Of a stretch of DNA of 64,000 bases, positions 7,435 to 59,552 are shown piece by piece. The stretch lies in the IMG/VR virus record IMGVR_UViG_3300008116_000011, positions 96,001 through 160,000 of that record. The stretch is one strand, 5' to 3'. The DNA is from a virus. The position numbers and the translations under genes were made by a program. The notes under the pieces are model-generated. The model made no database searches. It was not told the DNA's origin and saw only the letters and a program-made list of their open reading frames with translations. Each line of letters opens with the position of its first letter. Position 1 is the first letter of the stretch.

Positions 7435-7647
7435 TTAGGCAGTTGGCAACTGGCTGTTTTTTACGCGGCGGCGTGAAATAGAATACATTGCATTTGCAAG
7501 TACTTCATTTACTGTTCTTTCTCCTGCTTTAACATAATTGATAAAACGGGTTGTGAAACCAGTAGTTTCAGCAAGGCGAGTAGTGTCACCTTTGCGTTCG
7601 CGAGCCATGTAAAATGCTAATTTCGCTGTGCGATTCAATTTACTCAT
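7435..7647 (-). CDS. Small Cro/HTH-like DNA-binding protein
   Basis: TTRLAETTGFTTRFINYVKAGER fits an HTH pattern; basic; has its own promoter and terminator. Confidence 0.55.
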   Translation of the reverse strand: MSKLNRTAKLAFYMARERKGDTTRLAETTGFTTRFINYVKAGERTVNEVLANAMYSISRRRVKNSQLPTA

Positions 7648-7683
7648 AACAATTTTTGTTTGTTTAACAATTTATTTACAATG

Positions 7684-7715
7684 TAAATATATAGACAGTA
7701 AATTGGGTTTCCAAA
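7684..7715 (-). promoter_or_regulatory. Promoter TTTGG-N19-TATATTTA
   Basis: Exact motif and spacing upstream of the HTH gene. Confidence 0.7.
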
Positions 7716-7719
7716 AGAG

Positions 7720-7791
7720 TTGTTGTACCAAGATTCGAACTTAGTCTTTATGTTCCGGAAACATACGTGCTATCCCTTACACTATACAACA
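7720..7791 (-). tRNA. tRNA-Arg(CCG), no encoded CCA
   Basis: TGTTGTA/TACAACA acceptor; GTGT/GCAC D-stem with GGA (A20); TATGT-TTCCGGA-ACATA anticodon arm; CTAAG-TTCGAAT-CTTGG T arm. Confidence 0.85.
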
Positions 7792-7796
7792 AAGGA

Positions 7797-7830
7797 ATAA
7801 AAAAAGGGACTGATTAGGTCCCTTTTTATT
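7797..7830. terminator. Intrinsic terminator (bidirectional-looking)
   Basis: AAAAAGGGAC / GTCCCTTTTT stem flanked by A and T tracts. Confidence 0.7.
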
Positions 7831-7866
7831 GAGTACACCTTTCGGTGGTTTGAACAACTCGCAAAG

Positions 7867-7914
7867 GGTTCTTTGTATAAGCTCAAACCAGGTTCTTTGT
7901 ATAAGCTCAAACCA
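7867..7914. repeat. Perfect 24-bp tandem duplication
   Basis: GGTTCTTTGTATAAGCTCAAACCA x2. Confidence 0.95.
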
Positions 7915-7938
7915 CGGAGTACTTAAGTTTCCGAAGCT

Positions 7939-8013
7939 TGGAGCCACCAGTCAGGCTTGATCTGACACCTCTCCCGGTCGGAGTGGGAGGCTTCTACATT
8001 GAACTATGGCGGC
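7939..8013 (-). tRNA. Atypical tRNA-like element (CCG anticodon, encoded CCA)
   Basis: GCCGCCA/TGGTGGC-T-CCA acceptor; CTCCC-ACTCCGACC-GGGAG arm; GTCAG-ATCAAGC-CTGAC T arm lacking TTC; D loop lacks GG. Confidence 0.7.
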
Positions 8014-8162
8014 GAGTATCTTTTAAAGGATACTCAAACCTGCCTTGCGACAGTTTATTCGAGTTGTCTGCTCTAGATAGCTATAAAAACCGATTTGGTC
8101 GGTAAGGATTGATCTATCTAGTCCCTTTGTTGTTTGCTTAGTGCGTATATAAATATATAATA

Positions 8163-8516
8163 TTATCCAAAAACAGCTACTCCTACTACAGTTCCTATAG
8201 AAGCACAAATTACAAATACTATTTGGTCTACTCTAGTTCCGTAAGTTACCCTTTGCACATTTAATGCAAATGAAATCCAGAAAAAGAAAGCTACAAAAAA
8301 TAGACCAATATCTGCTTGCATTGTTTCATTAGCCCATCTAGCACTAATATTACTTCTCATAAATGCATGAATAAATGCTGACATAAATGCTACTACAAAT
8401 GTAATAGGATTATAACTATTTACTTTAAGATACTCAGTAAATAATGATTTATTACCTTGTGTTAGTATCTTTTTTGCTTTTGGCTTTTTTCGAGGTTGTA
8501 ATTGATTATTTTCCAT
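8163..8516 (-). CDS. Three-TM membrane protein
   Basis: Three hydrophobic segments; overlaps the queC stop. Start at 8516 or 8522 is uncertain. Confidence 0.6.
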   Translation of the reverse strand: MENNQLQPRKKPKAKKILTQGNKSLFTEYLKVNSYNPITFVVAFMSAFIHAFMRSNISARWANETMQADIGLFFVAFFFWISFALNVQRVTYGTRVDQIVFVICASIGTVVGVAVFG

Positions 8517-9333
8517 ATTCATTTAAAACTTTTTCTACGTGTGCTTTAGCTACTTCCCAAGATACAGGACCTGTTTCATCAGCATACTCTACAGAATCCG
8601 GACGACCCAATTTGATAAATGCTTCAATACGTTCTACTGATGCTGCTGATTTGTAGTCAGAATACCATTTACCTTCAAAATCAGACCATGGATGTTTAAT
8701 AAAGATTGGTTTATAAGATGTATTAGTACGTTTATACACTTCATTAAAATCTAAACCTAATATTTCACAAGCTTTTAAACCATCTTCTAAAATATCAAAT
8801 TTATTCATTTCAAGATATGGAGTATAATGTGATATTCTTTCAGCATCCCAATTACCAATCATAAACGCTTCAAAATCAGCATCACGGAATTCTTGTCTAC
8901 AATCAGGATAAATTGCATGGTCACCAGCATGAATACCCATTGCAATAGCACATTCAGTACTATGTTTAGTTGCTATAGATAATGCTACTGCTTGTATAAG
9001 TGAAGCAAAAATTTTATTACGATTAGGAACAACAGTATCTTTCATGTTGTCTTGTTCGTAATGTCCTTCAGGTACATCCCACCCACCTTCAACTAATGCT
9101 GAGTTGAGTAGTTGAGATAGGCCATCAATTTTGATTATTTGGTGTTTTACTTTGTAAACTAGTCTAGTGTTTACATATTCAACTAATGAAGTTGCTCGTT
9201 CAAGTTCTACTCTATGTTTTTGACCATAATCAAAAGATAGAGCTGTTACTTGATAACCATTTGCTAATAGGTGGAGGAGTAAAGTTGATGAATCCATTCC
9301 ACCTGACAGTGATAATACTGCTTGTTTTTTCAT
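8506..9333 (-). CDS. queC: 7-cyano-7-deazaguanine synthase
   Basis: SGGMDS, FDYGQKH, VPNRN, HAGDHAIYPDCR. C-terminal Zn cysteines are absent. Confidence 0.92.
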   Translation of the reverse strand: MKKQAVLSLSGGMDSSTLLLHLLANGYQVTALSFDYGQKHRVELERATSLVEYVNTRLVYKVKHQIIKIDGLSQLLNSALVEGGWDVPEGHYEQDNMKDTVVPNRNKIFASLIQAVALSIATKHSTECAIAMGIHAGDHAIYPDCRQEFRDADFEAFMIGNWDAERISHYTPYLEMNKFDILEDGLKACEILGLDFNEVYKRTNTSYKPIFIKHPWSDFEGKWYSDYKSAASVERIEAFIKLGRPDSVEYADETGPVSWEVAKAHVEKVLNEYGK

Positions 9334-12195: not shown

Positions 12196-14067
12196 CTAAA
12201 CTATTTCACAGGCACCACCAGCACACGCTGCTTGATCCATCAAGGCAGTTTCATCGCTAAATTCTACTACTTTAGATAAATCAATTGAGTGAAGGTGTTG
12301 AGCCATTTCTTCAAATTGTTCTTTAGTAATATCTTCGAATGGTGCTTGAATGTAGCTACCTCCAAAATAAGGTAATACTGATAAGCCATTAAATGTTTCT
12401 TTGTATTTCCACATCCATTCACCTACTTCTTTCCATTCATTTTCTTTAATTGAAATAGTAGCGGATACGTTATTTGTATTTGCTCCTCTTCTATGGCCTT
12501 TTCTAACCCATTCTACATTGAATTTACGAACACGTTCTAACAAGTCAATAGCTGATTCTGTTCTTAAAATAGCGCCTTCTGGTGCTTTTTGAGGTACTGA
12601 AATTACAGCTTGGATTGTTGGTTTAAAGTATTCATCTTCTACTAGTTCAGGATGATGAACAGCCAAGTGAGTATATAGTGCTTCATTTTTACCTACTCTC
12701 ATTCGGCGAACATAATAATCGTTATGCCATGCATGAATACCACTTGAAGTACCTAATACTAATGATGAAGTACCAGATGGTTTAATTGTAGTAACACGAG
12801 CTGCTGTGTTAATATTTAAAATTTCAGCTACACGAGCATTTTCTACTTTAGCAATTTCAGCTGCTTCTTTTAAGTTATACTTTAATACAGCACCAGAACC
12901 AATACCTGTTTGACCAACACCAATTAAAGCGTCTTTTTCAGTTGTTTTACGCCATACATCTCTCAAGTAATGGAAATCAGTGTATGATGCTTGTAATGTA
13001 CCAATAAAGGCAGCAGCACGAGCTCTTTCATTTAGATCTTCTTGTGATTCAACATCTGAAACGTTTAATTCACATAAGTTACAGAATTGGTAAGGGCGAA
13101 GAGCAATTTCGCAACATGGGTTTGTACCCCAATCCTTATCGTTTGAAAAATAAATACCGGGTTCACCACTGCCGCTCATTTCAATTTTTTTCCACAGCTT
13201 AAAGAATTCTTCTTCTGTGATTTTGTGGCGTAACACAACGGCAGAATTGTTAGCGCGACCACGTTGAGGATTTTCTTCCCACCAATTTCCAAATTTACAC
13301 GTCAACATATCTTCATCGTTTAAATTAAACAATGAAATCAATGCTGCTCTTCTAATACCACCTGATAATACTGCATCTGCAATATGACAAATAATATCAT
13401 GTGCTTCAAGTGAAGTTACTTTATCGCCATTTTGCTTGCGATCAAATATCTTCTGAATTTGGAATAGACATTCTTTTAATGGCTCAGGACCAGGTGCTTT
13501 GCCACCTGCAGTAATTAAACGAGCCCCTTTAGGACGAATATCTCTAAAGTCAAATAATGGAAGTGGAGATCCAGTAAAATATGCTTTAACTAGTATTTTA
13601 ACTGAGTCAGCCCATCCTTCAATGCTATCACTTACTAGATAGCGTTTATGTTTGGTAGGAATTTTAATTTCAGGAAGTTGTTCAATGTGGTGTTGTTGTA
13701 CACTAAATCCTACTCCACAACCACTTAACAATAAAAACATTGTTTCGCTAAATGAACGATAATCATCTACAGGTAAATAAGCACAATTGTAAATACGTGC
13801 ATTATTAATTTCAATTGGTTTACCAGCAAATTGTAATGAACGCATTGATGGTAAAATCTTTTTTGCATATACTAATTCATATGCTTTTTCAATTTCATCT
13901 TTTAAATTTGGAAACTTAGATATATGCATATCCTTATTTCTCGTAACTATTTCGTCCCATGTTTCTCTCCTTTCTAATTCAGGAATATACTTTGCGTACT
14001 TGTTATAAACTGTAATGTCAGAGAGAATGCTCACCGAAGGATGAACGTCATGTTTTCCTTTGTCCAT
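12196..14067 (-). CDS. nrdJ: Class II (B12-dependent) ribonucleotide reductase
   Basis: YNCAY, TNPCCEI, FCNLCE, TTIKPSGT, C-terminal ACAGGACEI; no beta subunit nearby. Confidence 0.9.
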   Translation of the reverse strand: MDKGKHDVHPSVSILSDITVYNKYAKYIPELERRETWDEIVTRNKDMHISKFPNLKDEIEKAYELVYAKKILPSMRSLQFAGKPIEINNARIYNCAYLPVDDYRSFSETMFLLLSGCGVGFSVQQHHIEQLPEIKIPTKHKRYLVSDSIEGWADSVKILVKAYFTGSPLPLFDFRDIRPKGARLITAGGKAPGPEPLKECLFQIQKIFDRKQNGDKVTSLEAHDIICHIADAVLSGGIRRAALISLFNLNDEDMLTCKFGNWWEENPQRGRANNSAVVLRHKITEEEFFKLWKKIEMSGSGEPGIYFSNDKDWGTNPCCEIALRPYQFCNLCELNVSDVESQEDLNERARAAAFIGTLQASYTDFHYLRDVWRKTTEKDALIGVGQTGIGSGAVLKYNLKEAAEIAKVENARVAEILNINTAARVTTIKPSGTSSLVLGTSSGIHAWHNDYYVRRMRVGKNEALYTHLAVHHPELVEDEYFKPTIQAVISVPQKAPEGAILRTESAIDLLERVRKFNVEWVRKGHRRGANTNNVSATISIKENEWKEVGEWMWKYKETFNGLSVLPYFGGSYIQAPFEDITKEQFEEMAQHLHSIDLSKVVEFSDETALMDQAACAGGACEIV

Positions 14068-14131
14068 AGCTGGTTCAGATTTTATGTTTTGTAATTCTTA
14101 AAGTGTGCCAATAAATACAATATATACAACA

Positions 14132-15499
14132 TTAGGATGAACTAAGAATAAAGTTTTTCAGGAAATCCTTCTCATCTCTATCTAAAGTATTGTAATCAGT
14201 AGGTTTTTTAGATACTCCATTAGTCGGTTCTTCTATATCTAGAAAATCCTCGTATATATCTATATGTCCTGTTGAAGTATCTATTTTAGAGGCAAATGTC
14301 ATACCATCGGCACCTAATCTGTTCTTCATAATATGCCAACGTCCCGTACCTTCTAATTTGTCTTTTCTATTACGTGCTAATGATACCACTATATCCCCAA
14401 TCATCAATTTAGAATAAGAACCTGCTATATTATCTCCTTCAATAATATCACTTTTAGCACCTGTTCTATTTGCTTGTGAAGGTGTTACAATAGGTAATCC
14501 TAATTCACGAGCTAATCCTCGAACACTAGTGTATATATCTTCTGTTCCTTCTAATCTATCACGAGCTGTGTTTTTAAGCAAGTCGATATAATCAATAAAG
14601 ATGATATCTGGTATAAATTCATATTGAGTTTTAAGTTGTTCAATATGTTGTTCAATATTGTCTAGTGTAGTTTTTCCTGATGCAAATTCTTTAATTTTAA
14701 TTTTACCAGGTAAATTTTCTACTATTTGTTCAATTTCAGCTCTATGTTTTGTAATTTGATCTACAGGTACATTTAGAATGTTTGCGTCAATACGTCTTGC
14801 AACATATGTTTCACTTAATTCAAGTGTATAATACAATACATTATATCCTAATTTAGCAGCATGAGCAGCCATTGCAATAATAGCCCACGATTTACCTCCA
14901 CCAGGATTACCAAATACAATACCTAATTCACCTTTACCAATACCTCCTTGTGTAATATTATTAAATGTATCCCAAGGAAATGGAATAGGTCCTCTATTAT
15001 CTTCACGATAACGAGTTTCAACATCTTTTTCATATTCATGTCCTATTGATCTTACTTCACCTATTTTAAGTGCGTTAAGAATAATTTGACGAATAGAATC
15101 AAAATCATTTGTAACAAGCAAATCTGCTGATGTTACAATTGCTTTTTTCATTTGTTGGTTTTTACAAAAACCTAAAAATTCATCTTTAATGTATTGGATA
15201 TCTGTTTGTTCTGATTCACGATATGCTTGTACTAGCTGTTCTTTAATAGCAATTTTAAGTACATCGTTATCTATTTTTTGCACTTCAACTTTAATAGCAT
15301 CCATTGACGGAACAGTGTGATACTTATTAAAATATTTAAGTATTTCTTTGATAATCCATTGATGAGACGTGTTTTCAAAGTATTCATCGCTTAATGATTC
15401 AGAAATAGTAATTAAAAAATCTCGATCTGTCAGCAAGGCACCCATTACTTTTGTTTGGAAAGTAGGTCCGTACTGAGATAATTTACTCAGAGTTGTCAT
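14132..15499 (-). CDS. DnaB/gp41-type replicative helicase
   Basis: GNPGGGKS Walker A, TLEL, IDYIDL, SQANR, KNRLG. Confidence 0.9.
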   Translation of the reverse strand: MTTLSKLSQYGPTFQTKVMGALLTDRDFLITISESLSDEYFENTSHQWIIKEILKYFNKYHTVPSMDAIKVEVQKIDNDVLKIAIKEQLVQAYRESEQTDIQYIKDEFLGFCKNQQMKKAIVTSADLLVTNDFDSIRQIILNALKIGEVRSIGHEYEKDVETRYREDNRGPIPFPWDTFNNITQGGIGKGELGIVFGNPGGGKSWAIIAMAAHAAKLGYNVLYYTLELSETYVARRIDANILNVPVDQITKHRAEIEQIVENLPGKIKIKEFASGKTTLDNIEQHIEQLKTQYEFIPDIIFIDYIDLLKNTARDRLEGTEDIYTSVRGLARELGLPIVTPSQANRTGAKSDIIEGDNIAGSYSKLMIGDIVVSLARNRKDKLEGTGRWHIMKNRLGADGMTFASKIDTSTGHIDIYEDFLDIEEPTNGVSKKPTDYNTLDRDEKDFLKNFILSSS

Positions 15500-15517
15500 A
15501 CGTAACTTTTATTTTTG

Positions 15518-15549
15518 TAAATATACTATTTTAAAATAAGGGATCCAAA
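15518..15549 (-). promoter_or_regulatory. Promoter TTTGG-N19-TATATTTA (helicase)
   Basis: Exact motif and spacing. Confidence 0.7.
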
Positions 15550-16551
15550 AGTTTCTACTAACCATCCTTGGGTGTTACCAATAGAATTTTTTAGACCATC
15601 AGTCTCATAAAGCATTAAAAAACCACCTATATTTAAATTATTTATATCCTCATTTAGTGATTCAAATATAACCTGTTGATCAGGTTGAGAAATATTAGGT
15701 GATCTAAGATTCATCAATTGATAATTAATATCTAGTTGATGTTTAAAATCTAAAACACTACCATATAAAGCATTAACGTCAATATTATCTTGACATACTT
15801 CATATATTTCTCTTAAAGTATATTCAATATCATCACTTAGAGCAAATAATTTTACTGCTTTTTTAGGTCCTATTCCTTTTACTCCTGGAAGATTATCTGA
15901 TTGATCTCCCATTAGTGTTTTGTAAAGTAAAAAATTATTAGGATGCACTCCAAATTCTTCAAGTACATCTTTAGTTTTATATGTTTTACGTTTAGTAGGA
16001 GAGTAAACTGATGTTTTGTCACTAATTAATTGGTAGAAGTCTTTATCAGCAGACATAATAGTAATTTCTTTACATTCTTTATCATTTTCAAAATGATTAA
16101 CAATGTATCCTATACTATCATCTGCTTCTATTTTATCAATTGAAACTAAAGTGACAGGAAGCTGTTTTAAATATTGGATAAGGCGAGTCATTTGCCCAAC
16201 CATCGCTTCGCTTTCATCGTCCTTATTTTCAAATACATCCCAATTAGTAACGCGAGTAACATTTCTATTTCCTTTGTATTGTGGATATAGGTTTTTCTTA
16301 TTATTAGTACTACCTAAACCATCAAATACTAGTACTACTCGGGTAGGACGGAAAGTTTTAATAGCGTATCCAACACTTCTTAGATATCCCACAAGACCAC
16401 CAATATGGTGGCCTGCAGGATTCATAAGGTTAACAGTAGAGAAACTACGAATAAAAGTATTCATTGAATCTACTATAAGTATTCTACTGTTACGTGTTGG
16501 TTTTTCTCCTAAGGAATTAATAATTTGGTTTAAAAACTTTTTGTCAAACAT
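15526..16551 (-). CDS. 5'-3' exonuclease / flap endonuclease (PolI N-domain, T4 RNase H-like)
   Basis: VDSMN, VFDG, YKGNR, EADD, SADKD, GDQSDNLPGVKGIGPK. Confidence 0.92.
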   Translation of the reverse strand: MFDKKFLNQIINSLGEKPTRNSRILIVDSMNTFIRSFSTVNLMNPAGHHIGGLVGYLRSVGYAIKTFRPTRVVLVFDGLGSTNNKKNLYPQYKGNRNVTRVTNWDVFENKDDESEAMVGQMTRLIQYLKQLPVTLVSIDKIEADDSIGYIVNHFENDKECKEITIMSADKDFYQLISDKTSVYSPTKRKTYKTKDVLEEFGVHPNNFLLYKTLMGDQSDNLPGVKGIGPKKAVKLFALSDDIEYTLREIYEVCQDNIDVNALYGSVLDFKHQLDINYQLMNLRSPNISQPDQQVIFESLNEDINNLNIGGFLMLYETDGLKNSIGNTQGWLVETFGSLILK

Positions 16552-17633
16552 TATTCTGGTTCTTGTTCAAATCCCACATCATGAATAAGATCATCTCTTT
16601 CCTCAACAATATCAAAATCGTTTGTACCAAGTTTTTCAAGCCACTCTGCTGAGTGTAGCTTTTTGTATTCATCAATTGCTTTTTTATCATCATCAATAAA
16701 ACCATGAGTAGTCATGATGATAGTTCCTTTTGATGAAATACCATTTACGTGGTTCTTTTCAACTTGAATTTTAGTACGTTTAGCAAATTCAACGTCTTTA
16801 CCGTTTTTGGTTGCTTTAATTTTGTTTGTACCAGCATTTGATACATTACCAAATGTAATGATAAATGTTGCATCATACCACATTGCCATTCCACCTTTAT
16901 TCATCATTTTAGGTTGAGACATTGGTGTTTCTGCCTTTGCTGTCCAAACTTTATTAACACATACTAATGTATTTGTATAGGGGTAAGATTCCTTACGTGA
17001 TAATAGGATCTTTTGGTTTACACCGTTAGAAAATTGAGTTGACATTGCACCTGCAATCCACTCATTATTATTTTTTCCTGAGTTGAGTGACATTTGGCAC
17101 GTAATACTTCCAATTGAATCCCAAAAGAATGCTAAGTCATGAGGCAGATTACCTTTCTTTTGTTCATCTAATAAATCAGAAATAAAAGATGCTACGTCTT
17201 CAACTGTATTTAGGTTGCTTCTATCAGCAAATATAAAGAAACCATTATAATCCGCTACGGCACCATTTTCATCAGGTATTTCCTCAAATTGCAGACCCAT
17301 TTCACGAGCATGCTCCCAATTCCATTTCATCTCTGTGATTAGGAATACAGGTAATACACCCATTTTTTGAGCTGCTACTGCTGCTTCTAACATTGCTGTT
17401 GTTTTGCCTGTATCCGAGTGACCACGTAACAAAGTTATGTGGCCCATCGGAATACCAGGTACAGAAGTAACATCTTGAAAAGCTTGTGATAGTGGAATCC
17501 ACTTTTGTTCTTTAAATTTAACAGCTGTAGTTAGATATTTTGCCTGTTTAAAAGCATCTAAATCAAATGACTTGCCAGGAGAACTTTTAATGGCAGAAGA
17601 TGCTGCCTCATTTAAACTTTTACCACGAGCCAT
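16551..17633 (-). CDS. RecA/UvsX-like recombinase
   Basis: GHSDTGKT Walker A, WDSIG Walker B, KGG, KNH. Confidence 0.85.
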   Translation of the reverse strand: MARGKSLNEAASSAIKSSPGKSFDLDAFKQAKYLTTAVKFKEQKWIPLSQAFQDVTSVPGIPMGHITLLRGHSDTGKTTAMLEAAVAAQKMGVLPVFLITEMKWNWEHAREMGLQFEEIPDENGAVADYNGFFIFADRSNLNTVEDVASFISDLLDEQKKGNLPHDLAFFWDSIGSITCQMSLNSGKNNNEWIAGAMSTQFSNGVNQKILLSRKESYPYTNTLVCVNKVWTAKAETPMSQPKMMNKGGMAMWYDATFIITFGNVSNAGTNKIKATKNGKDVEFAKRTKIQVEKNHVNGISSKGTIIMTTHGFIDDDKKAIDEYKKLHSAEWLEKLGTNDFDIVEERDDLIHDVGFEQEPE

Positions 17634-17635
17634 AA

Positions 17636-18442
17636 TTATTCGTTAAATAGGTCATTAAATTTGTCTGCTTTAGATTGCTTAGCCTGCAAGTTAAAATTTT
17701 GGTCTTGCTTTTTTTCCCAAGGTAAATCACCCTCTTCCTCTTCGTCCTTAGCAACAATTGGCTCTTCAGTATCTTCTTCAGGATTAGCCCATTTTTGGAA
17801 GATTTCGTTCAAGCTCTCATAAGTGTGATGCTTATTAATTGCTAAAATGTCAGGTTGCTCTTCAAGCCAACCATTAATGGCATCAGCATCATCAGAAAGT
17901 GGAGTTGTTTTTACACGTGGGGTAAGGTTACATTTAATACCTTTACGACCTGCAATGTCTGCTTCAACAGCTTCAATGACAAAATCACGACCATCTTGAA
18001 TATCGGTATAATCACCGTAATCTTCATTCATGGCAATGTTCATAAGTTGTGTGTAAAGTTCTTTACCAAATTCCCACAAACGAACACCCATTTGCTCTTC
18101 ACCACGTACAATAACAGGAGCAAATACTCTCATTTTAGGAGTAATTTTCTTTGCCATCTGCCAATGATCAGGATTGTCTGATTTGCGAAGCTTTTGAGCT
18201 GCTTCTACAATTGGATCAGCTTCACCCCAGTTGGTTAGTGCAAGGATAGGTCCTTTTGTGTAGCCATAGTGAAAATAAATTTCACGGAATGGAGTCGATT
18301 TGTTAAACTTAGAAGGAACAATACGAATCTGGTATTTACCAGCTTTTGGTTTCCAGAAAATCTTTGTGTAGTCGATTTTCTCTCTTTTTTCTCCTTTACT
18401 CTGGAAGGAGTCCAGTTTGTTTTTAATTAATGATAAATCCAT
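17636..18442 (-). CDS. Single-stranded DNA-binding protein (gp32-like)
   Basis: FWKPKAG..IRIVP, DYTD..GRDF; acidic C-tail with DLPW. Confidence 0.85.
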   Translation of the reverse strand: MDLSLIKNKLDSFQSKGEKREKIDYTKIFWKPKAGKYQIRIVPSKFNKSTPFREIYFHYGYTKGPILALTNWGEADPIVEAAQKLRKSDNPDHWQMAKKITPKMRVFAPVIVRGEEQMGVRLWEFGKELYTQLMNIAMNEDYGDYTDIQDGRDFVIEAVEADIAGRKGIKCNLTPRVKTTPLSDDADAINGWLEEQPDILAINKHHTYESLNEIFQKWANPEEDTEEPIVAKDEEEEGDLPWEKKQDQNFNLQAKQSKADKFNDLFNE

Positions 18443-18464
18443 AACATTTTTTATTTTGTGACAA

Positions 18465-18496
18465 TAAATATAAGAAATTAGGATTGGGTATCCAAA
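18465..18496 (-). promoter_or_regulatory. Promoter TTTGG-N19-TATATTTA (ssb-uvsX-exo)
   Basis: Exact motif and spacing. Confidence 0.7.
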
Positions 18497-18520
18497 AACG
18501 GTACTGGTTTTATTTTATTA

Positions 18521-18841
18521 TTACATAAGATCCCTTAACCATTGCAATACTTCCCTTAATTCATCATCTTTTAAATGATATATATCTTCAGAAGTAATAT
18601 AACCTTTTTCATCAAAAGCATCAATAAAACCATATTCTAATCCTATACGCTCTAATTCCTCGCGTAAAACATTATAATACCCCACATATGGATCACCATC
18701 CCACTGATGTTCAGCTTTACGAGCTAAATTATTAAATAAATCAACTATACCTAGGAATTGTGGTTGTACAGGTACAACTTTAGCCTCATTAATTCCTGCT
18801 AGTTTTTGCAGGCGTTGAGCTTCTGTGATGTACTGTTTCAT
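18521..18841 (-). CDS. Hypothetical protein with ITEAQRLQKLAGINE leader (candidate head-internal protein)
   Basis: Leader shared with 55403-55729 and 55735-56184; TATTTATA at 18845-18852. Confidence 0.65.
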   Translation of the reverse strand: MKQYITEAQRLQKLAGINEAKVVPVQPQFLGIVDLFNNLARKAEHQWDGDPYVGYYNVLREELERIGLEYGFIDAFDEKGYITSEDIYHLKDDELREVLQWLRDLM

Positions 18842-18852
18842 GGATATAAATA

Positions 18853-19314
18853 CTAGATCTCTACTATCTTGTAGATCTTAGTGTGTACTTTCCTTAAACC
18901 ACCGTCTTGAGTAAGCAATATAGTATTGCGGTGATCCAACCAATTAACTCTATAATTAGTATCTAATATACCTCCGTTTAATTCACGAATTAATGCATTA
19001 AGAGCATTAATTGTATATAATGTATTACTTTCTTTTTTGCGATGCAGCAATATTGTATTGGAAAGAGCATTTTGTGAATTGTTATTCACAATATCAATGT
19101 TGTAAGTAAGAATTAATTCATCTGTATCTGGTGATTCCAATACAAATATTTTATTATATAAAATAGCATAACGCGTAGTTAAGCTATTTAATGTCTCATC
19201 TAATCTGTTGTGCTCAATAAAGGTGCAAAATAATTTATTTCCCGCCATTTCATCAATAAGAATGTTCTCAAATTCATAACTGGTCATAAATATGGGGTGT
19301 TCTAGTGTAGACAT
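18853..19314 (-). CDS. Conserved-looking hypothetical protein
   Basis: NKLFCTF...LHRKKESNTLYTINALN; start uncertain (a promoter-like motif at ~19285 suggests a later start). Confidence 0.65.
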   Translation of the reverse strand: MSTLEHPIFMTSYEFENILIDEMAGNKLFCTFIEHNRLDETLNSLTTRYAILYNKIFVLESPDTDELILTYNIDIVNNNSQNALSNTILLHRKKESNTLYTINALNALIRELNGGILDTNYRVNWLDHRNTILLTQDGGLRKVHTKIYKIVEI

Positions 19315-19320
19315 TATGTT

Positions 19321-20598
19321 TTAGTTTAATCCGTTATAGTTAGTTCCTGTTTTTACTCGTACAGGGTATTGGAGTTTAGCGATAAGTTCATTGATTTTTT
19401 GCGTTTCTTCACGCGATACATCAATAAGCACAGAATCGTATGTGTATAGTATTATACGTGATTTTAATGGTCTAAATTCATTAAATAATGAATAAAATTG
19501 TGTGACATTCTGCGAAGTCTCATAATTCTGAATGTAGTAGTTTAATATTTTTTGTGGGTTAGGGTTGTCAATATCTTTTAGTCTAAAGCGTTTACCAGAT
19601 AGCATTTCAATAAACCCACTATAGTTAATAGTGTCCCATAGATCTTCGGTAAATGCTTGTATATTTTTAAAAAATGGTTTACTTTGCAATTCAGGTCTAA
19701 TACCTCCATACAAATTTTGGAATGTTATTTCTTTAACTTTAGATGTATCGGGGTTGTTTAGTATTTTTCCTATTTGACTATATACACTTGTTTCTTTATC
19801 AAACTTGTAGTCTACAATTGTACCAAGAAGACGCGGATGGTACCCGTTAAAGTCAATTTCAATAAATAAATCGTTGTGTGGTATAAAACATTCACGTTCA
19901 CCATTTTCTTTATTTAAGGCAGCAAAGTTTATACCATTGAAGCTATTAGAAGGGCGCCCAGTGAGAGTAAATAAATTATAAGAAGTGTAAATAACTCCTT
20001 GTTTGACTGAAAAATGCGGTGTAAGGTGGTTTTCATGATACTTAATAAAACATGTTTTATCTAATTTAATACCTTCTTTTTCTATCTTAAAAAACACCTC
20101 GATTGCTTTATTCATAGCATCAGTGTTTTTAAGTAGGTAAGGTTTTACTACATCATAAATATTCTCACAATACTCATAATGTTTAGAGATAGGTATAAGC
20201 TCATTAACATTTTTTAAAGAACCATGCTCACGATAAAAATTAGAGATAATTATTGGTTCGCATTTATCAAAATCAAACCTACTATTTTCTGTTAAAGCAT
20301 AATGAAATGAGGCATCATTAATTTTACCACTAAGAAAATATTTAGTATACTTTGCATCAACAGCATACAATTCCTTTTCGGATAGATATTTTTTAATTGT
20401 TTGCCATTTTAAACTAAGCGATTCACTATGCTTAATACAAAATATATAACCTTTACTATTAAATGGCTTTACATACACAAGTGAAACTTCGGCAATAGCA
20501 GGATGATAATTGTTGTTATTTGTAATTATATGAACAAAACATTTATCAAAGGGAGGTATGTGTTGTAACTGTTCTTCTTTCTCAATAATATAAAACAT
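19321..20598 (-). CDS. Miniature family A DNA polymerase
   Basis: TLTGRPSN, motif A EIDFNGYHPR, motif B KEITFQNLYGG, NYYIQ, motif C YTYDS. Confidence 0.8.
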   Translation of the reverse strand: MFYIIEKEEQLQHIPPFDKCFVHIITNNNNYHPAIAEVSLVYVKPFNSKGYIFCIKHSESLSLKWQTIKKYLSEKELYAVDAKYTKYFLSGKINDASFHYALTENSRFDFDKCEPIIISNFYREHGSLKNVNELIPISKHYEYCENIYDVVKPYLLKNTDAMNKAIEVFFKIEKEGIKLDKTCFIKYHENHLTPHFSVKQGVIYTSYNLFTLTGRPSNSFNGINFAALNKENGERECFIPHNDLFIEIDFNGYHPRLLGTIVDYKFDKETSVYSQIGKILNNPDTSKVKEITFQNLYGGIRPELQSKPFFKNIQAFTEDLWDTINYSGFIEMLSGKRFRLKDIDNPNPQKILNYYIQNYETSQNVTQFYSLFNEFRPLKSRIILYTYDSVLIDVSREETQKINELIAKLQYPVRVKTGTNYNGLN

Positions 20599-34078: not shown

Positions 34079-37000
34079 TTATGGATTTTGATATCTAACC
34101 CATACGGCACCTTGAGCTCCTGTACAACCTGCTCCTGCAGAGTCATCATCTCTTGCTCCACCACCAGCACCATATATACCACCAGCTCCTTGAGTACCGT
34201 TGTTTCCACCTGTACCTCCAGTACCTACAGCGTTTAATGCTCCTCCAGTACCATTAGTTCCTGCTGCTGTTGCAAACCGTACACCACCACCGCCATATCC
34301 TTGACCACTAGTTGTTGCACCACCACCGCCGCCACCACCGCCAGCTCCATTAGCACCTGCACCACCATTACCACCATTACCACCATTACCAGAATAACCT
34401 CCTGCACCACCACCTCCACCTCCGGAGTTATTATCTGTAGCTCCACCACCACTACCACCATTACCACCACCACTAGTTAGTACAGATCCAGCGTCTATAG
34501 TATAAGTACCTCCTGCTCTTGCAGCTGTAGTACGTTCTACTCCTCCTAAACCTCCAGTAGCATTAATAATAGTTGTAGCTCCACGTTTTAATTGAGAGAA
34601 TCCACCTGCAGTACCGTTACCACCATTAGTAGAAGTACCTCCATTACCAACGATAATAGTTAATGATTCACTTGGGGTTACAGTAAGTGTAGCCCATCCT
34701 AAGGCTCCACCACCACCACCTGTATTACCTTGGTTACGGTTACCATCGGATCCGGCACCACCACCACCACCACCAACACACACAACATAAAGTTCTGTTA
34801 CTCCTGTTGGAACTGTAAAGCTAGAGCTTCCTACAGTTGTAAATGATTGAGTAGTAAATGTAGGTGCTCCACCACCACCAGATGGAGTTATTGTACGTGT
34901 AGGTGTTGCAGTTGGTGTAATTGTCCGTGTTGGGGTGATAGTCTGTGTAGGTGTAATTGTCCGTGTTGGAGTAATACTAGGTGTAATAGTAGCACTTGGT
35001 GTAATTGTTCTTGTTGGTGTAATCGTAACTGTTGGTGTAATTGTTGGTGTGATTGTAGCTGTTGGAGTAGGAGTAGCTCCAACACAAGATCCTTCAGTAA
35101 TAGTAGGTACAGGAGTAGCTCCATTAATAGCAGTCCATGTAGTTACTTGCCAAGGATATTGAACCTGATCACTACTAGCATAATATAAAGTAAGTGGAAC
35201 ATCTTTATCCCTTATTTGCCAGTTACTTACTTGATTATTAAAATATACTCTATAAAGTCCATTAGCACTTTCATAAGTTTGGAATCCAAGATATGTGTAT
35301 GTTCCATTAAGTGCTGTTGTTCCTGCTCCAGCAACGCAAGCTGGGTTGGTATTTTCTGATGATGGAGTAGGTGTAGCTGTTCTAGTAGGTGTTGCTGTTG
35401 GAGTTATAGTAGCAGTTGGAGTAATTGTTCTTGTTGGAGTAATTGTTGGTGTTACTGTAGCTGTTGGAGTAGGACTTGGAGATACACAAGCTCCTTCAGT
35501 AACAGTAGGTACTGGAGCACTACAACATCCTACCTGCCATGTTGTAACTTGCCATGGATATTCTACATTATCTGTAGAGAAGTAATACACAAGTACAAAT
35601 CCAGTTGAATATATTTCCCATTGTGTACCAGTCCAATAAATAATTACATCCTCAGGGAATGTTTTACCATTACCATATCGTGGTCTATTATTTAATAAAA
35701 ATCCAGAGTAAGTATAAGTACCATTTCCACCAGTAGTTCCTCCACCAGCAACACACACTGGGTTAGTATTAATTGCAGATGGAGTAATTGAAGGTGTTAT
35801 GGTAACAGTTCTTGTTGGGGTAACTGTTCTTGTTGGTGTAATTGTTGCTGTTGGTGTAATAGTCCGTGTAGCAGTAATAGAAGGTGTTATAGTCTGAGTT
35901 GGTGTAATTGTTCTAGTTGGGGTAATACTTGGAGTAATTGTTGCACTAGGTGTAATTGTCCTTGTAGGTGTAATTGTTGGTGTTATACTTGCTGTAGGAG
36001 TAACAGTCCGAGTAGCAGTAATACTAGGTGTAATAGTAGCTGTAGGAGTTACAGTTCGAGTAGCAGTAATTGATGGTGTAATAGTAGCAGTTGGAGTAAT
36101 AGTTGAGCTAGGAGTTACTGTAGGAGAAGCAGTTATTGATGGAGTAATAGTAACAGATGGAGTAATAGTCCTTGTTGGTGTTATTGAAGGTGTAACAGTT
36201 ACTGTAGGTGTTATAGTGCTAGATGGAGTAACAGTAGGAGAGGCTGTTATACTTGGTGTAATAGTAGCACTTGGAGTAACAGTACTAGAAGGAGTTACTG
36301 TTGGAGATGAGGTTATTGATGGTGTAATAGTGACAGTTGGTGTTACAGTTCTTGTTGGTGTAATCGACGGAGTAATTGTAACAGATGGTGTTACTGTCGA
36401 ACTAGGTGTTACAGTAGGTGATGCAGTTATAGATGGAGTTATAGTAACTGTAGGAGTAACAGTCCGAGTAGCAGTTATACTTGGAGTTATTGTTACCGTT
36501 GGCGTAATTGTGCTAGAAGGAGTTACTGTTGGTGATGCCGTAATACTCGGAGTAATTGTTACAGTTGGAGTAATTGTTCTTGTAGGTGTTATAGAGGGCG
36601 TAATAGTGACAGTTGGTGTTACAGTAGCACTTGGAGTAATAGTTTGAGTTGGTGTTATTGAAGGTGTAATTGTTGATGTTGGCGTAACAGTTCGAGTAGC
36701 AGTTATTGTTGGTGTAATAGTTACACTAGGAGTTACAGTTACTGAAGGAGTTATAGTGCTTGAAGGTGTAATTGTTGGAGTAGCAGTTATTGATGGTGTT
36801 ATAGATGCAGTTGGTGTAACCGTTCTAGTAGGTGTAATACTAGGAGTAACAGTAACACTTGGAGTAATAGTTGAACTAGGAGTTACTGTCCGAGTTGGAG
36901 TTATAGTTGCTGTTATTGAAGGAGTTACAGTTACACTAGGAGTAACAGTTACAGATGGAGTAACTGTTCTAGTTGGTGTTATTGATGGTGTAATTGTAAC

Positions 37001-39271
37001 TGTAGGTGTTATTGTTGCTGTTGGTGTAATAGTCCTTGTTGGTGTAATACTAGGAGTTATTGTTACTGTTGGTGTGATTGTTGCTGTAGGTGTAATAGTC
37101 CGAGTTGGAGTAATACTTGGAGTAATTGTTACACTAGGAGTAACAGTACTTGAAGGTGTTACAGTAGGAGAAGCAGTTATTGATGGTGTTACAGTTACAC
37201 TAGGTGTAATTGTCCGTGTTGGCGTAATTGAAGGAGTTACAGTTGCTGTAGGAGTTATAGTAACAGATGGGGTTATAGTTGCTGTAGCTGTTATACTAGG
37301 GGTAATAGTAACAGACGGAGTTATAGTTCTTGTAGGTGTAATACTTGGAGTAACTGTAACTGAAGGTGTTACTGTTACTGAAGGAGTAATTGTAGATGTT
37401 GGTGTAATTGACGGTGTAATTGTAGCACTAGGAGTTATAGTTCTTGTAGGTGTAATACTAGGTGTTATTGTAGCTGATGGAGTTACAGTTACACTAGGTG
37501 TAATTGTGGCTGTTGGTGTAATAGATGGTGTTATAGTAACACTTGGAGTAATTGTTCTTGTTGGTGTAATTGATGGAGTAACAGTTACTGTAGGCGTAAC
37601 AGTTGAACTTGGAGTTACTGTAGGTGAAGCAGTTATAGATGGAGTAATGGTTACTGATGGTGTGATTGTTCTAGTTGGAGTAATACTTGGGGTAACTGTA
37701 ACTGAAGGTGTTATTGTTGCTGTTGGTGTTATTGTAGCTGATGGAGTGATAGTTCTTGTAGGGGTAATACTTGGTGTAATTGTAACACTAGGTGTAATTG
37801 TAGATGTTGGTGTTATTGTTACACTTGGTGTTATTGTTGCTGTTGGAGTAATACTTGGAGTAATAGTAGCACTTGGAGTTATAGTTCTTGTTGGTGTTAT
37901 ACTAGGAGTTACAGTTACACTAGGCGTAATTGTGCTTGTTGGTGTGATAGTAGCTGTTGGTGTAATTGTAGGTGTAACAGTTACAGATGGAGTTACAGTC
38001 CGAGTAGGTGTAATTGAAGGAGTAATTGTAGCACTAGGAGTTATAGTTGCTGTTGGTGTTATGGTAGCTGTTGGAGTAATTGATGGTGTTATAGTAACAC
38101 TTGGAGTAATAGTTCTAGTAGGTGTAATTGACGGAGTTATAGTTACACTAGGAGTAACTGTGCTTGAAGGAGTTATAGTTGGTGATGCTGTTATTGATGG
38201 TGTAATTGTAACGGAAGGGGTAACAGTAGAACTAGGAGTTATAGTTGGTGATGCTGTTATACTCGGAGTTACTGTTACAGAAGGAGTTACAGTACTAGAA
38301 GGTGTAATTGTTCTAGTAGGAGTAATACTCGGAGTTACTGTTACTGATGGTGTTATAGTTGAGCTTGGAGTAACAGTAGGAGAAGCCGTTATACTAGGTG
38401 TTACAGTTACACTAGGTGTAATTGTAGATGATGGAGTAATAGTTGGAGAAGCAGTAATTGAAGGTGTGATTGTAACTGTAGGAGTTACAGTTGCACTTGG
38501 AGTTACTGTTCTAGTAGGTGTTATTGATGGTGTTATAGTTGCAGATGGAGTAATCGTTACACTAGGTGTGATTGTAACAGAAGGAGTTATAGTCGATGTA
38601 GGTGTAATACTTGGAGTAACAGTTACAGATGGAGTAATTGTTACTGTTGGAGTAATAGTTGCACTAGGTGTAATTGTTCTAGTAGGTGTGATTGAAGGAG
38701 TAATAGTTACAGAAGGTGTAATAGTAACAGTTGGAGTAACAGTTACAGAAGGAGTTATGGTACTTGAAGGTGTAATAGAAGGAGTTATTGTAACAGAAGG
38801 AGTAACAGTACTAGATGGTGTAACGGTTCTAGTTGGTGTTATTGATGGAGTTATTGTAACAGATGGAGTAACAGTAGAACTAGGAGTAACAGTTCTTGTT
38901 GGTGTAATAGAAGGAGTTATTGTAACAGAAGGAGTAACAGTTCTTGAAGGAGTAACAGTTACAGAAGGTGTAATTGTTACAGATGGAGTAACTGTACGAG
39001 TTGGTGTGATAGTTGGAGTAATAGATGGAGTTACAGTTACAGAAGGAGTAACAGTTCTTGAAGGTGTTGGTGGAGGTGTAAATTGGTCATACCCATACCA
39101 GCTACTCAATCTAAAAGGAGCGCTAGAATCGGGTTGATAAGGTGAATATGGATTTAAAGGTACATATTCACCTAAAGATGCACTAGTTAGTGAAAATGGT
39201 GCTTGGGCGGGTACACCCAATTCATTTCTAACATCGTCAAGTGATATAGATCCTGTTAACTGTAACGGCAT
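34079..39271 (-). CDS. Giant Thr/Pro-repeat (mucin-like) virion fibre/adhesin with Gly-rich C-terminal domain
   Basis: N-terminal GSISLDDVRNELG; ~1100 aa of TP(S/T)x(T)(V/I) repeats; two homologous ~90-aa domains; Gly-rich tip (VGGGGGG...GAQGAVWVRY). Confidence 0.8.
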   Translation of the reverse strand: MPLQLTGSISLDDVRNELGVPAQAPFSLTSASLGEYVPLNPYSPYQPDSSAPFRLSSWYGYDQFTPPPTPSRTVTPSVTVTPSITPTITPTRTVTPSVTITPSVTVTPSRTVTPSVTITPSITPTRTVTPSSTVTPSVTITPSITPTRTVTPSSTVTPSVTITPSITPSSTITPSVTVTPTVTITPSVTITPSITPTRTITPSATITPTVTITPSVTVTPSITPTSTITPSVTITPSVTITPSATITPSITPTRTVTPSATVTPTVTITPSITASPTITPSSTITPSVTVTPSITASPTVTPSSTITPSVTVTPSITPTRTITPSSTVTPSVTVTPSITASPTITPSSTVTPSVTITPSITASPTITPSSTVTPSVTITPSITPTRTITPSVTITPSITPTATITPTATITPSATITPSITPTRTVTPSVTVTPTITPTATITPTSTITPSVTVTPSITPTRTITPSATITPSITPTATITPSVTITPTSTITPSVTITPSITPTRTITPSATITPTATITPSVTVTPSITPTRTITPSVTITPSITASPTVTPSSTVTPTVTVTPSITPTRTITPSVTITPSITPTATITPSVTVTPSATITPSITPTRTITPSATITPSITPTSTITPSVTVTPSVTVTPSITPTRTITPSVTITPSITATATITPSVTITPTATVTPSITPTRTITPSVTVTPSITASPTVTPSSTVTPSVTITPSITPTRTITPTATITPTVTITPSITPTRTITPTATITPTVTITPSITPTRTVTPSVTVTPSVTVTPSITATITPTRTVTPSSTITPSVTVTPSITPTRTVTPTASITPSITATPTITPSSTITPSVTVTPSVTITPTITATRTVTPTSTITPSITPTQTITPSATVTPTVTITPSITPTRTITPTVTITPSITASPTVTPSSTITPTVTITPSITATRTVTPTVTITPSITASPTVTPSSTVTPSVTITPSITPTRTVTPTVTITPSITSSPTVTPSSTVTPSATITPSITASPTVTPSSTITPTVTVTPSITPTRTITPSVTITPSITASPTVTPSSTITPTATITPSITATRTVTPTATITPSITATRTVTPTASITPTITPTRTITPSATITPSITPTRTITPTQTITPSITATRTITPTATITPTRTVTPTRTVTITPSITPSAINTNPVCVAGGGTTGGNGTYTYSGFLLNNRPRYGNGKTFPEDVIIYWTGTQWEIYSTGFVLVYYFSTDNVEYPWQVTTWQVGCCSAPVPTVTEGACVSPSPTPTATVTPTITPTRTITPTATITPTATPTRTATPTPSSENTNPACVAGAGTTALNGTYTYLGFQTYESANGLYRVYFNNQVSNWQIRDKDVPLTLYYASSDQVQYPWQVTTWTAINGATPVPTITEGSCVGATPTPTATITPTITPTVTITPTRTITPSATITPSITPTRTITPTQTITPTRTITPTATPTRTITPSGGGGAPTFTTQSFTTVGSSSFTVPTGVTELYVVCVGGGGGGAGSDGNRNQGNTGGGGGALGWATLTVTPSESLTIIVGNGGTSTNGGNGTAGGFSQLKRGATTIINATGGLGGVERTTAARAGGTYTIDAGSVLTSGGGNGGSGGGATDNNSGGGGGGAGGYSGNGGNGGNGGAGANGAGGGGGGGGATTSGQGYGGGGVRFATAAGTNGTGGALNAVGTGGTGGNNGTQGAGGIYGAGGGARDDDSAGAGCTGAQGAVWVRYQNP
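35775..39075 (-). repeat. Degenerate 12/18-bp coding repeats (TPSITPTRTI / TPSVTI units)
   Basis: Near-perfect protein-level repeats with varied synonymous codons. Confidence 0.9.
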
Positions 39272-58979: not shown

Positions 58980-59552
58980 TTATTGTGATAAATTTCTAAT
59001 TTTATTTGATAAATCATTTAACCTTTCAGACAGAGCACTTAATTGTTCTGTTTTAGAAGTCCAAAATGATTCTTTTTTTATAGTATTTTCAGTCTTTAAT
59101 CTATGAGAATATTCAATTACTTGCTCAATCTCTCTAATACGCTTTCTAACTTCATTTAATGCACGAGTAATTTTACGCTCAGAAGAAACTTTAGATACAT
59201 TTTCACTAAAACGACGATATGAAATCTCGTTTAATTGTTCTTGATTTTCTTTATACAACTTAATCTTTTTAGGTTCTGGTTTTGCAGGAAATTGTTTGTA
59301 ATCAAACATTCTTGAATCAGATGGCATCCCCTCAGGTACTTTTTTAAATCCATCTTTAGTATATGAACTAATATTAGCTTTACCTGCAGCTAAAGTAGGA
59401 GTTTTTTCTTCTAGTTTCTTTGGTTTTTTAAGAAAATACTTACTATTATATTCTCCACCAGCACTAGCAGTAGTAGACGTAGCTCCATCCATTTCTTCTA
59501 ACATTTCATGGATAAGTTCGTCAATATATTTTTTTACTTTATCAGGAATCAT
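58980..59552 (-). CDS. Head-cluster hypothetical protein
   Basis: ATGA overlap with the upstream gene; 'EMDG.TSTTASAGGEY'. Confidence 0.6.
   Translation of the reverse strand: MIPDKVKKYIDELIHEMLEEMDGATSTTASAGGEYNSKYFLKKPKKLEEKTPTLAAGKANISSYTKDGFKKVPEGMPSDSRMFDYKQFPAKPEPKKIKLYKENQEQLNEISYRRFSENVSKVSSERKITRALNEVRKRIREIEQVIEYSHRLKTENTIKKESFWTSKTEQLSALSERLNDLSNKIRNLSQ

Follow-up and report, generated by a model that had tools for sequence, protein, structure and literature searches.

Relation to known tRNA-like RNAs

Phage RNAs with parts that look like tRNAs (T4 species 1 and 2, GOLLD, and the phage Y RNAs) have been known for decades without an assigned function. The T4 RNAs rnaC (species 1) and rnaD (species 2) belong to a tRNA transcription unit and are processed from it. 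GOLLD is a phage RNA encoded near tRNA islands, with a 5' domain, a 3' domain, and a linker that sometimes contains a tRNA (bioRxiv 10.1101/2024.12.08.627333), and YrlA, which has an internal tRNA-like domain, is acted on by RNase P, the CCA-adding enzyme, and tRNA-modifying enzymes (PMC4201824). Here we describe an RNA element found in 64,000 nucleotides (nt) of viral DNA, positions 96,001 to 160,000 of the IMG/VR record IMGVR_UViG_3300008116_000011. This stretch is called the window; coordinates refer to it unless marked as genome coordinates, and the element is read on the minus strand. It fills the gap between an open reading frame (ORF) of 119 amino acids (8522-8163) and a tRNA-Arg(CCG) gene (7791-7719), and is about 335 nt long here and about 310 nt in relatives. 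Judged from its sequence, the element is a strongly constrained phage RNA with a mimic of tRNA(CCG). To our preferred reading, one composite stable RNA that holds the mimic internally, with tRNA-Arg made by read-through, we give about an even chance.

The element was compared with all 4227 families of Rfam 15, at the gathering cut-offs and at E-values up to 10. The tRNA family was the sole match; the cis-regulatory models (T-box, riboswitches) remained unmatched, and matches to small-RNA families were at chance level, far below the cut-offs. A first-pass annotation of the window, which used the letters alone, had been unable to place the RNA with tmRNA, RNase P, or a riboswitch class, and the scan likewise recovered none of these.

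The T4 RNAs resemble the predicted RNA in being small stable RNAs of a T4-type myovirus, encoded beside a tRNA-Arg and of unknown function, and the tRNA-type acceptor and T arm of rnaC is a likeness to the mimic. They are shorter (119 and 139 nt, against about 310 nt) and lie downstream rather than upstream of tRNA-Arg, and no sequence similarity between them and the element was found by nhmmer. Unlike in the T4 RNAs, the cloverleaf here is complete, with its anticodon conserved, and a promoter box and terminator belong to the element itself. The GOLLD and ROOL RNAs, which are large, ornate, and found in phages and prophages, are similar to it in being phage-encoded, often near tRNA islands, and of unknown function. 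However, the element has one third to one half of their size and occurs in one narrow phage clade only, and its embedded part is a constant degenerate mimic, whereas GOLLD carries an optional normal tRNA; the GOLLD and ROOL models of Rfam have no match at E up to 10 in positions 7600-8300.

In the Y RNA YrlA, as here, a tRNA-like domain lies within a larger fold. YrlA differs in its size (about 100 nt), its location adjoining Ro60, and its Ro-binding stem, and the mimic described here keeps a full anticodon arm. The Y-RNA models of Rfam were unmatched, and the 174-kb phage genome gave no TROVE match for a Ro60 protein, although control genomes responded. T-box leaders share with the element a long structured leader, an intrinsic terminator, and a triplet resembling a codon, with a purine after it (CGG-A), that could pair with a tRNA anticodon. 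Nevertheless, no T-box model or conserved T-box sequence is matched, the RNA contains the tRNA-like part itself, in cis, and the candidate UGGN is not coupled to the discriminator base; moreover, T-boxes control genes of aminoacyl-tRNA synthetases and transporters, whereas the downstream gene here encodes a tRNA. Finally, tmRNA likewise fuses a tRNA-like module to further structured RNA with pseudoknots, but the element has a contiguous cloverleaf with an anticodon arm, no tag reading frame, and no match to RF00023, and a true tmRNA is encoded elsewhere in the genome.

The element is another phage RNA containing a tRNA mimic, and its family, itself uncatalogued, is an addition to RNA databases. 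With its small size, defined ends, and strong conservation it offers a tractable case for the role of phage tRNA mimics, for which decoy, processing handle, regulator of tRNA supply, and scaffold are candidates. The mimic and the adjoining real tRNA share an anticodon for a codon used almost only in two giant proteins.

Structure and conservation of the RNA element

The layout has three parts: a 5' domain formed by the hairpins H1/H1b, the GCAA-capped hairpin Hb, and the hairpin Hc; a degenerate but complete tRNA(CCG) cloverleaf; and a 3' domain formed by the hairpin Hd, the helix UGGUUUGA/UCAAACCA, the GNRA-capped hairpin Hf, and the terminator. In the order of transcription the features are as follows (relatives are denoted by L numbers; percentages of paired cells refer to the alignment).

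8148-8155, minus strand: promoter-class box TATTTATA, 14 nt 5' of the first conserved base; kept in relatives, with one mismatch in L002
7800-8133, minus strand: core of the conserved non-coding RNA, ACAACAAAGGG through the terminator U-tract (alignment A2, 19 sequences)
8133-8121, minus strand: 5' segment ACAACAAAGGGAC
8123-8129, minus strand: CAAAGGG within the 5' segment, identical in all relatives
8073-8121, minus strand: long hairpin H1, CUAGAUAG/CUAUCUAG, with a variable internal loop; 100% of cells paired
8121-8114 and 8080-8073, minus strand: arms of H1 in DNA letters, CTAGATAG pairing with CTATCTAG
8089-8103, minus strand: tip hairpin H1b, ACCGA/UCGGU
8060-8067, minus strand: ACAACUCG, candidate long-range partner of CGAGUUGU in the hub; picked in the minimum free energy fold, invariant
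8040-8053, minus strand: hairpin Hb, CUGUC-GCAA-GGCAG, with a GNRA tetraloop; unchanged in 19 of 19 sequences
8014-8035, minus strand: hairpin Hc, GAGUAUC/GAUACUC, abutting G1 of the tRNA-like module with a spacer of 0 nt
7942-8013, minus strand: tRNA-like cloverleaf with anticodon loop YUCCGAC (CCG) and U73; Rfam tRNA, 35 bits
7939-7941, minus strand: CCA after U73, lineage-specific
7915-7935, minus strand: UUCGGA motif and hairpin Hd (CGGA...UCCG) with loop AACUUAAGUAC; 97% of cells paired
7867-7914: exact tandem duplication of 24 nt (Tandem Repeats Finder, 2.0 copies, 100% match)
7845-7868, minus strand: 24-nt hub strand CCCUUUGCGAGUUGUUCAAACCAC, that is, CCCUUUG-CGAGUUGU-UCAAACCAC
7836-7847, minus strand: variable hairpin Hf, here CACC-GAAA-GGUG
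7801-7827, minus strand: intrinsic terminator hairpin with U-tract, found by a terminator scan; three pairs with compensatory changes
7719-7791, minus strand: canonical tRNA-Arg(CCG), 9 nt past the U-tract (ARAGORN; Rfam, 56 bits)

The first-pass annotation had listed most of these features, and all that it listed are present on the minus strand, at the positions it gave: the TATTTATA box, the long stem, the ACCGA/TCGGT and GACA..TGTC hairpins, Hc, directly joined to the cloverleaf (8035-8014 to 8013), the cloverleaf itself, the hairpin CACC-GAAA-GGTG (7847-7836), the terminator (7827-7801), and the downstream tRNA-Arg. Its central claim, a real conserved and structured non-coding RNA with an embedded tRNA mimic, which begins behind a promoter box and ends at a terminator, agrees with our analysis. 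Other parts of it fared less well among the relatives. The 24-nt duplication is exact but confined to this genome and absent from all relatives; it yields two copies of the UGGUUUGA strand (7907-7914 and 7883-7890). The threefold occurrence of GGTTTGAG, similarly, is seen here, but its third copy is a product of the duplication. The proposed closure of the 3' domain by TTAAGTAC/GTACTCAA is not upheld, only about 70% of cells being paired across relatives, without compensation.

About 19 related phage contigs were gathered by exact-motif scans of IMG/VR and of metagenome contigs, and from contigs encoding homologues of the upstream ORF (81 clusters, 61-88% identity). Two of the 11 metagenome matches (L011 and L014) were dismissed as chance. 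Conservation is stronger in the RNA element than in the genes beside it: the core is 85-98% identical to the window, compared to 68-82% for the DNA of the upstream ORF and 79-96% for the downstream tRNA-Arg. The flanks match the cloverleaf in conservation. In particular, from ACAACUCG through GAGUA only two positions vary, both of them in loops, and 24 of the 28 hub columns are invariant.

The fold z-score of the whole element is -5.1 (-3.9 for the 5' domain and -3.5 for the 3' domain), and perfect complements of at least 7 nt cover 142 of 314 nt, a coverage reached by none of 2000 dinucleotide shuffles (35 +/- 21 nt). In the structure model on alignment A2, 96.9% of cells are paired. Both-sided changes occur at 10 pairs, in comparison with 4.1 +/- 1.2 in column shuffles (none of 500 reach this value), and slid controls are far lower. 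Covariation in flanking stems, by which the first-pass annotation proposed to judge the element, is found among the homologues, as Hc has paired insertions and deletions (one base pair more in L006 and one less in L009). A U-A pair of the helix UGGUUUGA/UCAAACCA, whose UCAAACCA strand belongs to the hub, is C-G in L009. Hf is replaced in relatives by at least five unrelated sequences of various lengths, all of them hairpins and mostly GNRA-capped. Hd is kept in L015 by a G.U pair and a new G-C pair, and in L009 by a register shift. By contrast with these helices, H1 and H1b show one-sided changes only, from A-U to G.U, in four and three sequences. Taken as sequence evidence, the compensatory changes support the three tRNA-like stems, Hc, UGGUUUGA/UCAAACCA, the variable GNRA-capped hairpin, and the terminator, and the RNA element appears clearly functional.

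The strand follows from the same comparison: the G.U pairs would correspond to C.A mismatches in a plus-strand transcript, so the RNA is that of the minus strand. This bears on the idea that the locus acts as DNA, namely as a replication origin or a packaging or recombination site with iteron-like GGTTTGAG repeats and cruciforms. Such an element would account for the repetition of GGTTTGAG and the many inverted repeats. However, the G.U intermediates of the compensatory changes are valid on the minus-strand transcript alone, the unit is bounded by a promoter box and a terminator, it contains a cloverleaf above the Rfam cut-off, and the third GGTTTGAG copy is a recent duplication in one genome; we regard a DNA-level role as very improbable.

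Several other interpretations were rejected. The interval has ORFs of at most 61 amino acids, and a coding function is excluded by insertions and deletions of 1-2 nt among the relatives. As an antisense RNA to ribosomal RNA, the element has a longest complement of 11 nt to E. coli 16S, 23S, and 5S rRNA (used as a proxy), a length equalled in 7 of 60 shuffles; complements to the phage's own genome of 11 and 12 nt are fewer than in shuffled controls. A loop-loop pairing CCUUAC/GCAAGG was discarded since it is formed in about 85% of cells, without compensation. Within the RNA, H1b (ACCGA/UCGGU) followed by UUUUU scores as terminator-like and could be a pause or early-termination site.

The tRNA-like module

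The cloverleaf (8013-7942) scores 35.0 bits with the Rfam tRNA model (RF00005), above the gathering cut-off of 29. It is missed by ARAGORN at default settings and is called tRNA-Arg(ccg) at 95% of the default threshold (-ps95). Three of its four stems show compensatory changes: the acceptor pair A7-U66 is G-C or G.U in relatives, a C-G pair of the anticodon stem is U-A in five sequences, and an A-U pair of the T stem is G-C in three, while the D stem is invariant. The A31.C39 mismatch is replaced by A-U in L006, which fixes the 7-nt loop YUCCGAC with U33, the anticodon CCG, and A37. The module also retains U8, A14, A15:U48, and U55-C56-R57. Its elbow, on the other hand, is degenerate: the D loop AAUGUA has a single G, so that G18G19 is missing, and position 54 may be A, C, or G and position 58 A, U, or C.

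Such a module could be a genuine, if unusual, second tRNA(CCG), excised from a tRNA operon precursor by RNase P and a 3' nuclease, supplied with CCA, and charged with arginine or another amino acid; the flanks would then be a conserved processing scaffold or yield small RNAs as by-products, in the way that rnaC and rnaD arise from the tRNA cluster of T4. A processed functional tRNA is possible because the anticodon loop is fully canonical, and the Rfam score, the ARAGORN call, the repair of A31.C39, and the retained tRNA nucleotides all fit it. The CCA would have to be added by the host, since the neighbouring tRNA-Arg also lacks an encoded CCA. Nevertheless, we consider a precursor of this type unlikely, if still to be taken seriously. 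Its flanks are conserved at least as well as the tRNA-like part, which sets them apart from ordinary spacers. An unpaired leader is missing, since the base at position -1 forms a pair inside Hc in all sequences, and the junction between Hc and G1 is of zero length throughout. CCA follows U73 in only 6 of 18 sequences and is gained or lost among close relatives, whereas the 3' flank is conserved. The elbow lacks G18G19 and is not conserved at positions 54 and 58, and the product would be a second decoder for a codon used just 16 times.

The same observations (equally conserved flanks, the spacerless junction with Hc, the unstable CCA, and the degenerate elbow) favour a cloverleaf that stays embedded. 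In the composite RNA that we prefer, it would be an internal mimic within a scaffold and not a conventional tRNA gene; its 5' end would stack directly on Hc, and its 3' end would continue into conserved sequence. With these tRNA nucleotides and the anticodon retained, the mimic may act as a decoy or handle; its target may be RNase P or a host factor that recognizes tRNA-Arg(CCG) by its body and anticodon. A bolder proposal is an RNA-only assembly that might display a covalently linked tRNA, by analogy with what has been proposed for GOLLD.

Long-range pairings, terminator, and downstream tRNA-Arg

The hub of the 3' domain is wholly covered by complements of at least 7 nt to three upstream segments, and only one of 2000 shuffles has such a 24-nt window. 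In the composite RNA, pairing of the hub with these segments would tie the 5' and 3' domains together. The tRNA-Arg(CCG) gene starts 9-12 nt past the terminator in every relative that extends far enough, and no promoter box is seen between the two. Read-through into tRNA-Arg, as suggested in the first-pass annotation, is thus a reasonable inference: without a box of its own, tRNA-Arg(CCG) would come from transcripts that pass the terminator, and cutting by RNase P at the start of the tRNA would release the large RNA, its 3' end protected by a hairpin.

Several points weigh against the composite RNA. The pairings between the domains, CAAAGGG/CCCUUUG and ACAACUCG/CGAGUUGU, never vary, and thus give no covariation support for a fold as a single unit. 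Competing pairings are equally invariant, namely UCGAA/UUCGG (preferred by RNAalifold), an extended Hb, and AAGGGA/UCCUUU, and the simultaneous formation of three hub pairings would result in a crowded topology. The anticodon loop is canonical, with 7 nt, U33, and a purine at position 37, and the ARAGORN call falls just under the default threshold. No partner protein was identified, a Ro60/TROVE protein in the phage included. Finally, all the relatives are close, so that conservation partly reflects shared ancestry.

The terminator could also be a regulated one. CAAAGGG of the 5' segment is complementary to three sites: CCCUUUG of the hub, the 3' arm of the terminator, and CCUUUG at the tRNA-Arg junction. 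From the latter two the first-pass annotation had inferred, as one of two options, a switch of read-through by alternative pairing of the terminator. The complementarity is there, but the pairing lacks covariation support, and the alignment does not favour the switch: changes in one terminator arm are matched by changes in the other, but not in the 5' segment, which is invariant. Position 7 of the pairing between the 5' segment and the terminator becomes A.C, A.A, or A.G in 6 of 15 sequences, and the 9-bp match shrinks to AAAGGG/CCCUUU where the terminator arms have covaried. The remaining candidate alternative pairings are uninformative because they are invariant.

More generally, pairings among two AAAGGG and three CCCUUU/CCUUUG segments may set the formation of the terminator, and hence the output of tRNA-Arg(CCG). 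The multiplicity of these segments makes an attenuator possible. Its input may be a signal received through the tRNA-like domain or the CGG-containing UUCGGA, and it would gate giant proteins whose genes contain CGG. Consistent with it are the position of tRNA-Arg behind a strong terminator in all relatives, the three complements of the 5' segment, the complementarity of UUCGGA to the anticodon loop of the mimic as well as to that of tRNA-Arg, and the concentration of 14 of 16 CGG codons in two giant Thr-rich ORFs. However, beyond the failure of the 5' segment to compensate for changes in the terminator arms, UUCGGA is more simply seen as the 5' strand of Hd, as the alignment suggests, since Hd is kept by compensation in L015 and L009. 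The change from UGGU to UGGC in L009 covaries with the hub and not with the tRNA discriminator base, no T-box or riboswitch model is matched, and 300 nt of near-invariant sequence would be unusual for an attenuator. We rate it as improbable, to about the same degree as the tRNA precursor.

A more speculative variant, which we hold to be somewhat less probable again, is a new kind of regulator built on the mimic: the cis-linked tRNA(CCG) look-alike and the CGG motif may sense the state of CGG decoding or a factor that binds tRNA-Arg(CCG), and set the read-through of the terminator accordingly. If so, the supply of tRNA-Arg(CCG) would gate the two giant Thr-rich proteins, which would be a phage counterpart of rare-codon control of the bldA type.

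Promoter boxes

The first-pass annotation placed a promoter ahead of the RNA, and the genome-wide distribution of the box bears this out. TATTTATA has 69 copies in the genome, counted in both orientations, of which 36 are intergenic in spite of the small non-coding share (6%) of the genome. At distances of up to 60 nt upstream of an ORF start, 30 copies have the orientation seen at the element and two are reversed. The phage tmRNA gene is also preceded by TATTTATA, 17 nt upstream. By these sequence criteria, TATTTATA is a real promoter class, probably the phage's own. Several boxes lie 3-4 nt before an ATG (for instance, at genome positions 8730, 12602, 108195, 114852, 158308, and 168212), which implies leaderless or near-leaderless mRNAs. 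All of the listed boxes that precede an ORF by up to 120 nt are on the minus strand.

Genome, relatives, and gene context

The source genome is a viral record of 174,437 bp with terminal repeats, 32% G+C, and only 6% non-coding DNA. It has no second copy or paralogue of the RNA element. The genes that adjoin the element, and the two ORFs in which CGG codons are concentrated, are as follows.

8163-8522, minus strand: 119-amino-acid ORF of a DUF1761-like membrane protein (weak Pfam DUF1761 match), directly 5' of the RNA
7435-7647, minus strand: 70-amino-acid ORF 3' of tRNA-Arg, kept in L002, L006, and L018 and replaced by other genes in other relatives
34079-39271 (window) and 13255-20307 (genome), minus strand: giant Thr-rich ORFs of 1730 and 2350 amino acids, the first ending in a Gly_rich_2 domain

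The 70-amino-acid ORF has no Pfam or PHROG match. On every examined contig that extends far enough, the RNA follows directly after the 119-amino-acid ORF. The first-pass annotation noted that the RNA sits inside a deazaguanine cluster, which is true here; some relatives likewise have the module of ORF, RNA, and tRNA between queD and queC. However, this location is incidental, since the gene neighbourhood of the module takes at least three other forms in relatives, with a holin gene upstream, with heme oxygenase and bilin reductase genes downstream, or among other genes. In the second of these (L026:1089-2100), the module is followed by genes of heme oxygenase and ferredoxin-dependent bilin reductase, an auxiliary pair that is unexpected here, as the nearest cultured relative by QueC is a Flavobacterium phage.

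The carriers are freshwater myoviruses that form a narrow clade and have a T4-type portal, as encoded in the present genome. Further motif and profile scans of IMG/VR for distant homologues gave only the same two contigs and chance matches, scans of genome contigs gave none, and blastn against the 'phages' collection found no match. The closest cultured relative found is Flavobacterium phage immuto, whose QueC is 62% identical; its QueC/tRNA region has no homologue of the RNA. This region contains an 86-nt gene annotated as 'tRNA-Cys' (L021:5634-5719; NC_055915, 20246-20331), which is missed by ARAGORN and weakly matches the tRNA-Sec family of Rfam (22.6 bits). It is preceded by about 110 nt devoid of an annotated gene on the same strand, with only an opposite-strand ORF of 33 amino acids, and is possibly a further tRNA-like element of an odd kind. 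Among the carriers of the module, the tRNA-Arg(CCG) of L002 (4693-4765) has the anticodon loop UCCCGGU, in which C33 replaces the near-universal U; the close relative L018 has the normal UUCCGGU.

CGG codons and the phage tmRNA

CGG accounts for 16 of the approximately 49,500 codons of the genome. The 14 of them found in the two giant Thr-rich ORFs sit in T-x-T-[IV]-T-P repeats. With CGG mostly confined to two ORFs, both elements with a CCG anticodon point at very few genes, and rare-codon dependence on the phage tRNA-Arg(CCG) is a possibility. Recoding of CGG by an odd tRNA finds no evidence in these repeats, where CGG occupies a variable position of the Thr-rich repeat at which AGA also occurs.

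The genuine tmRNA of the phage is encoded at genome positions 59339-59726 (L030:1838-2227, minus strand) and scores 56.8 bits with RF00023, compared to a cut-off of 47. Its tag is predicted by ARAGORN as DEMSTMTFDDLMAFVGADEATFA, followed by a stop. Approximately 800 nt downstream of the tmRNA are genes for tRNA-Thr(UGU) and tRNA-Leu(UAA).

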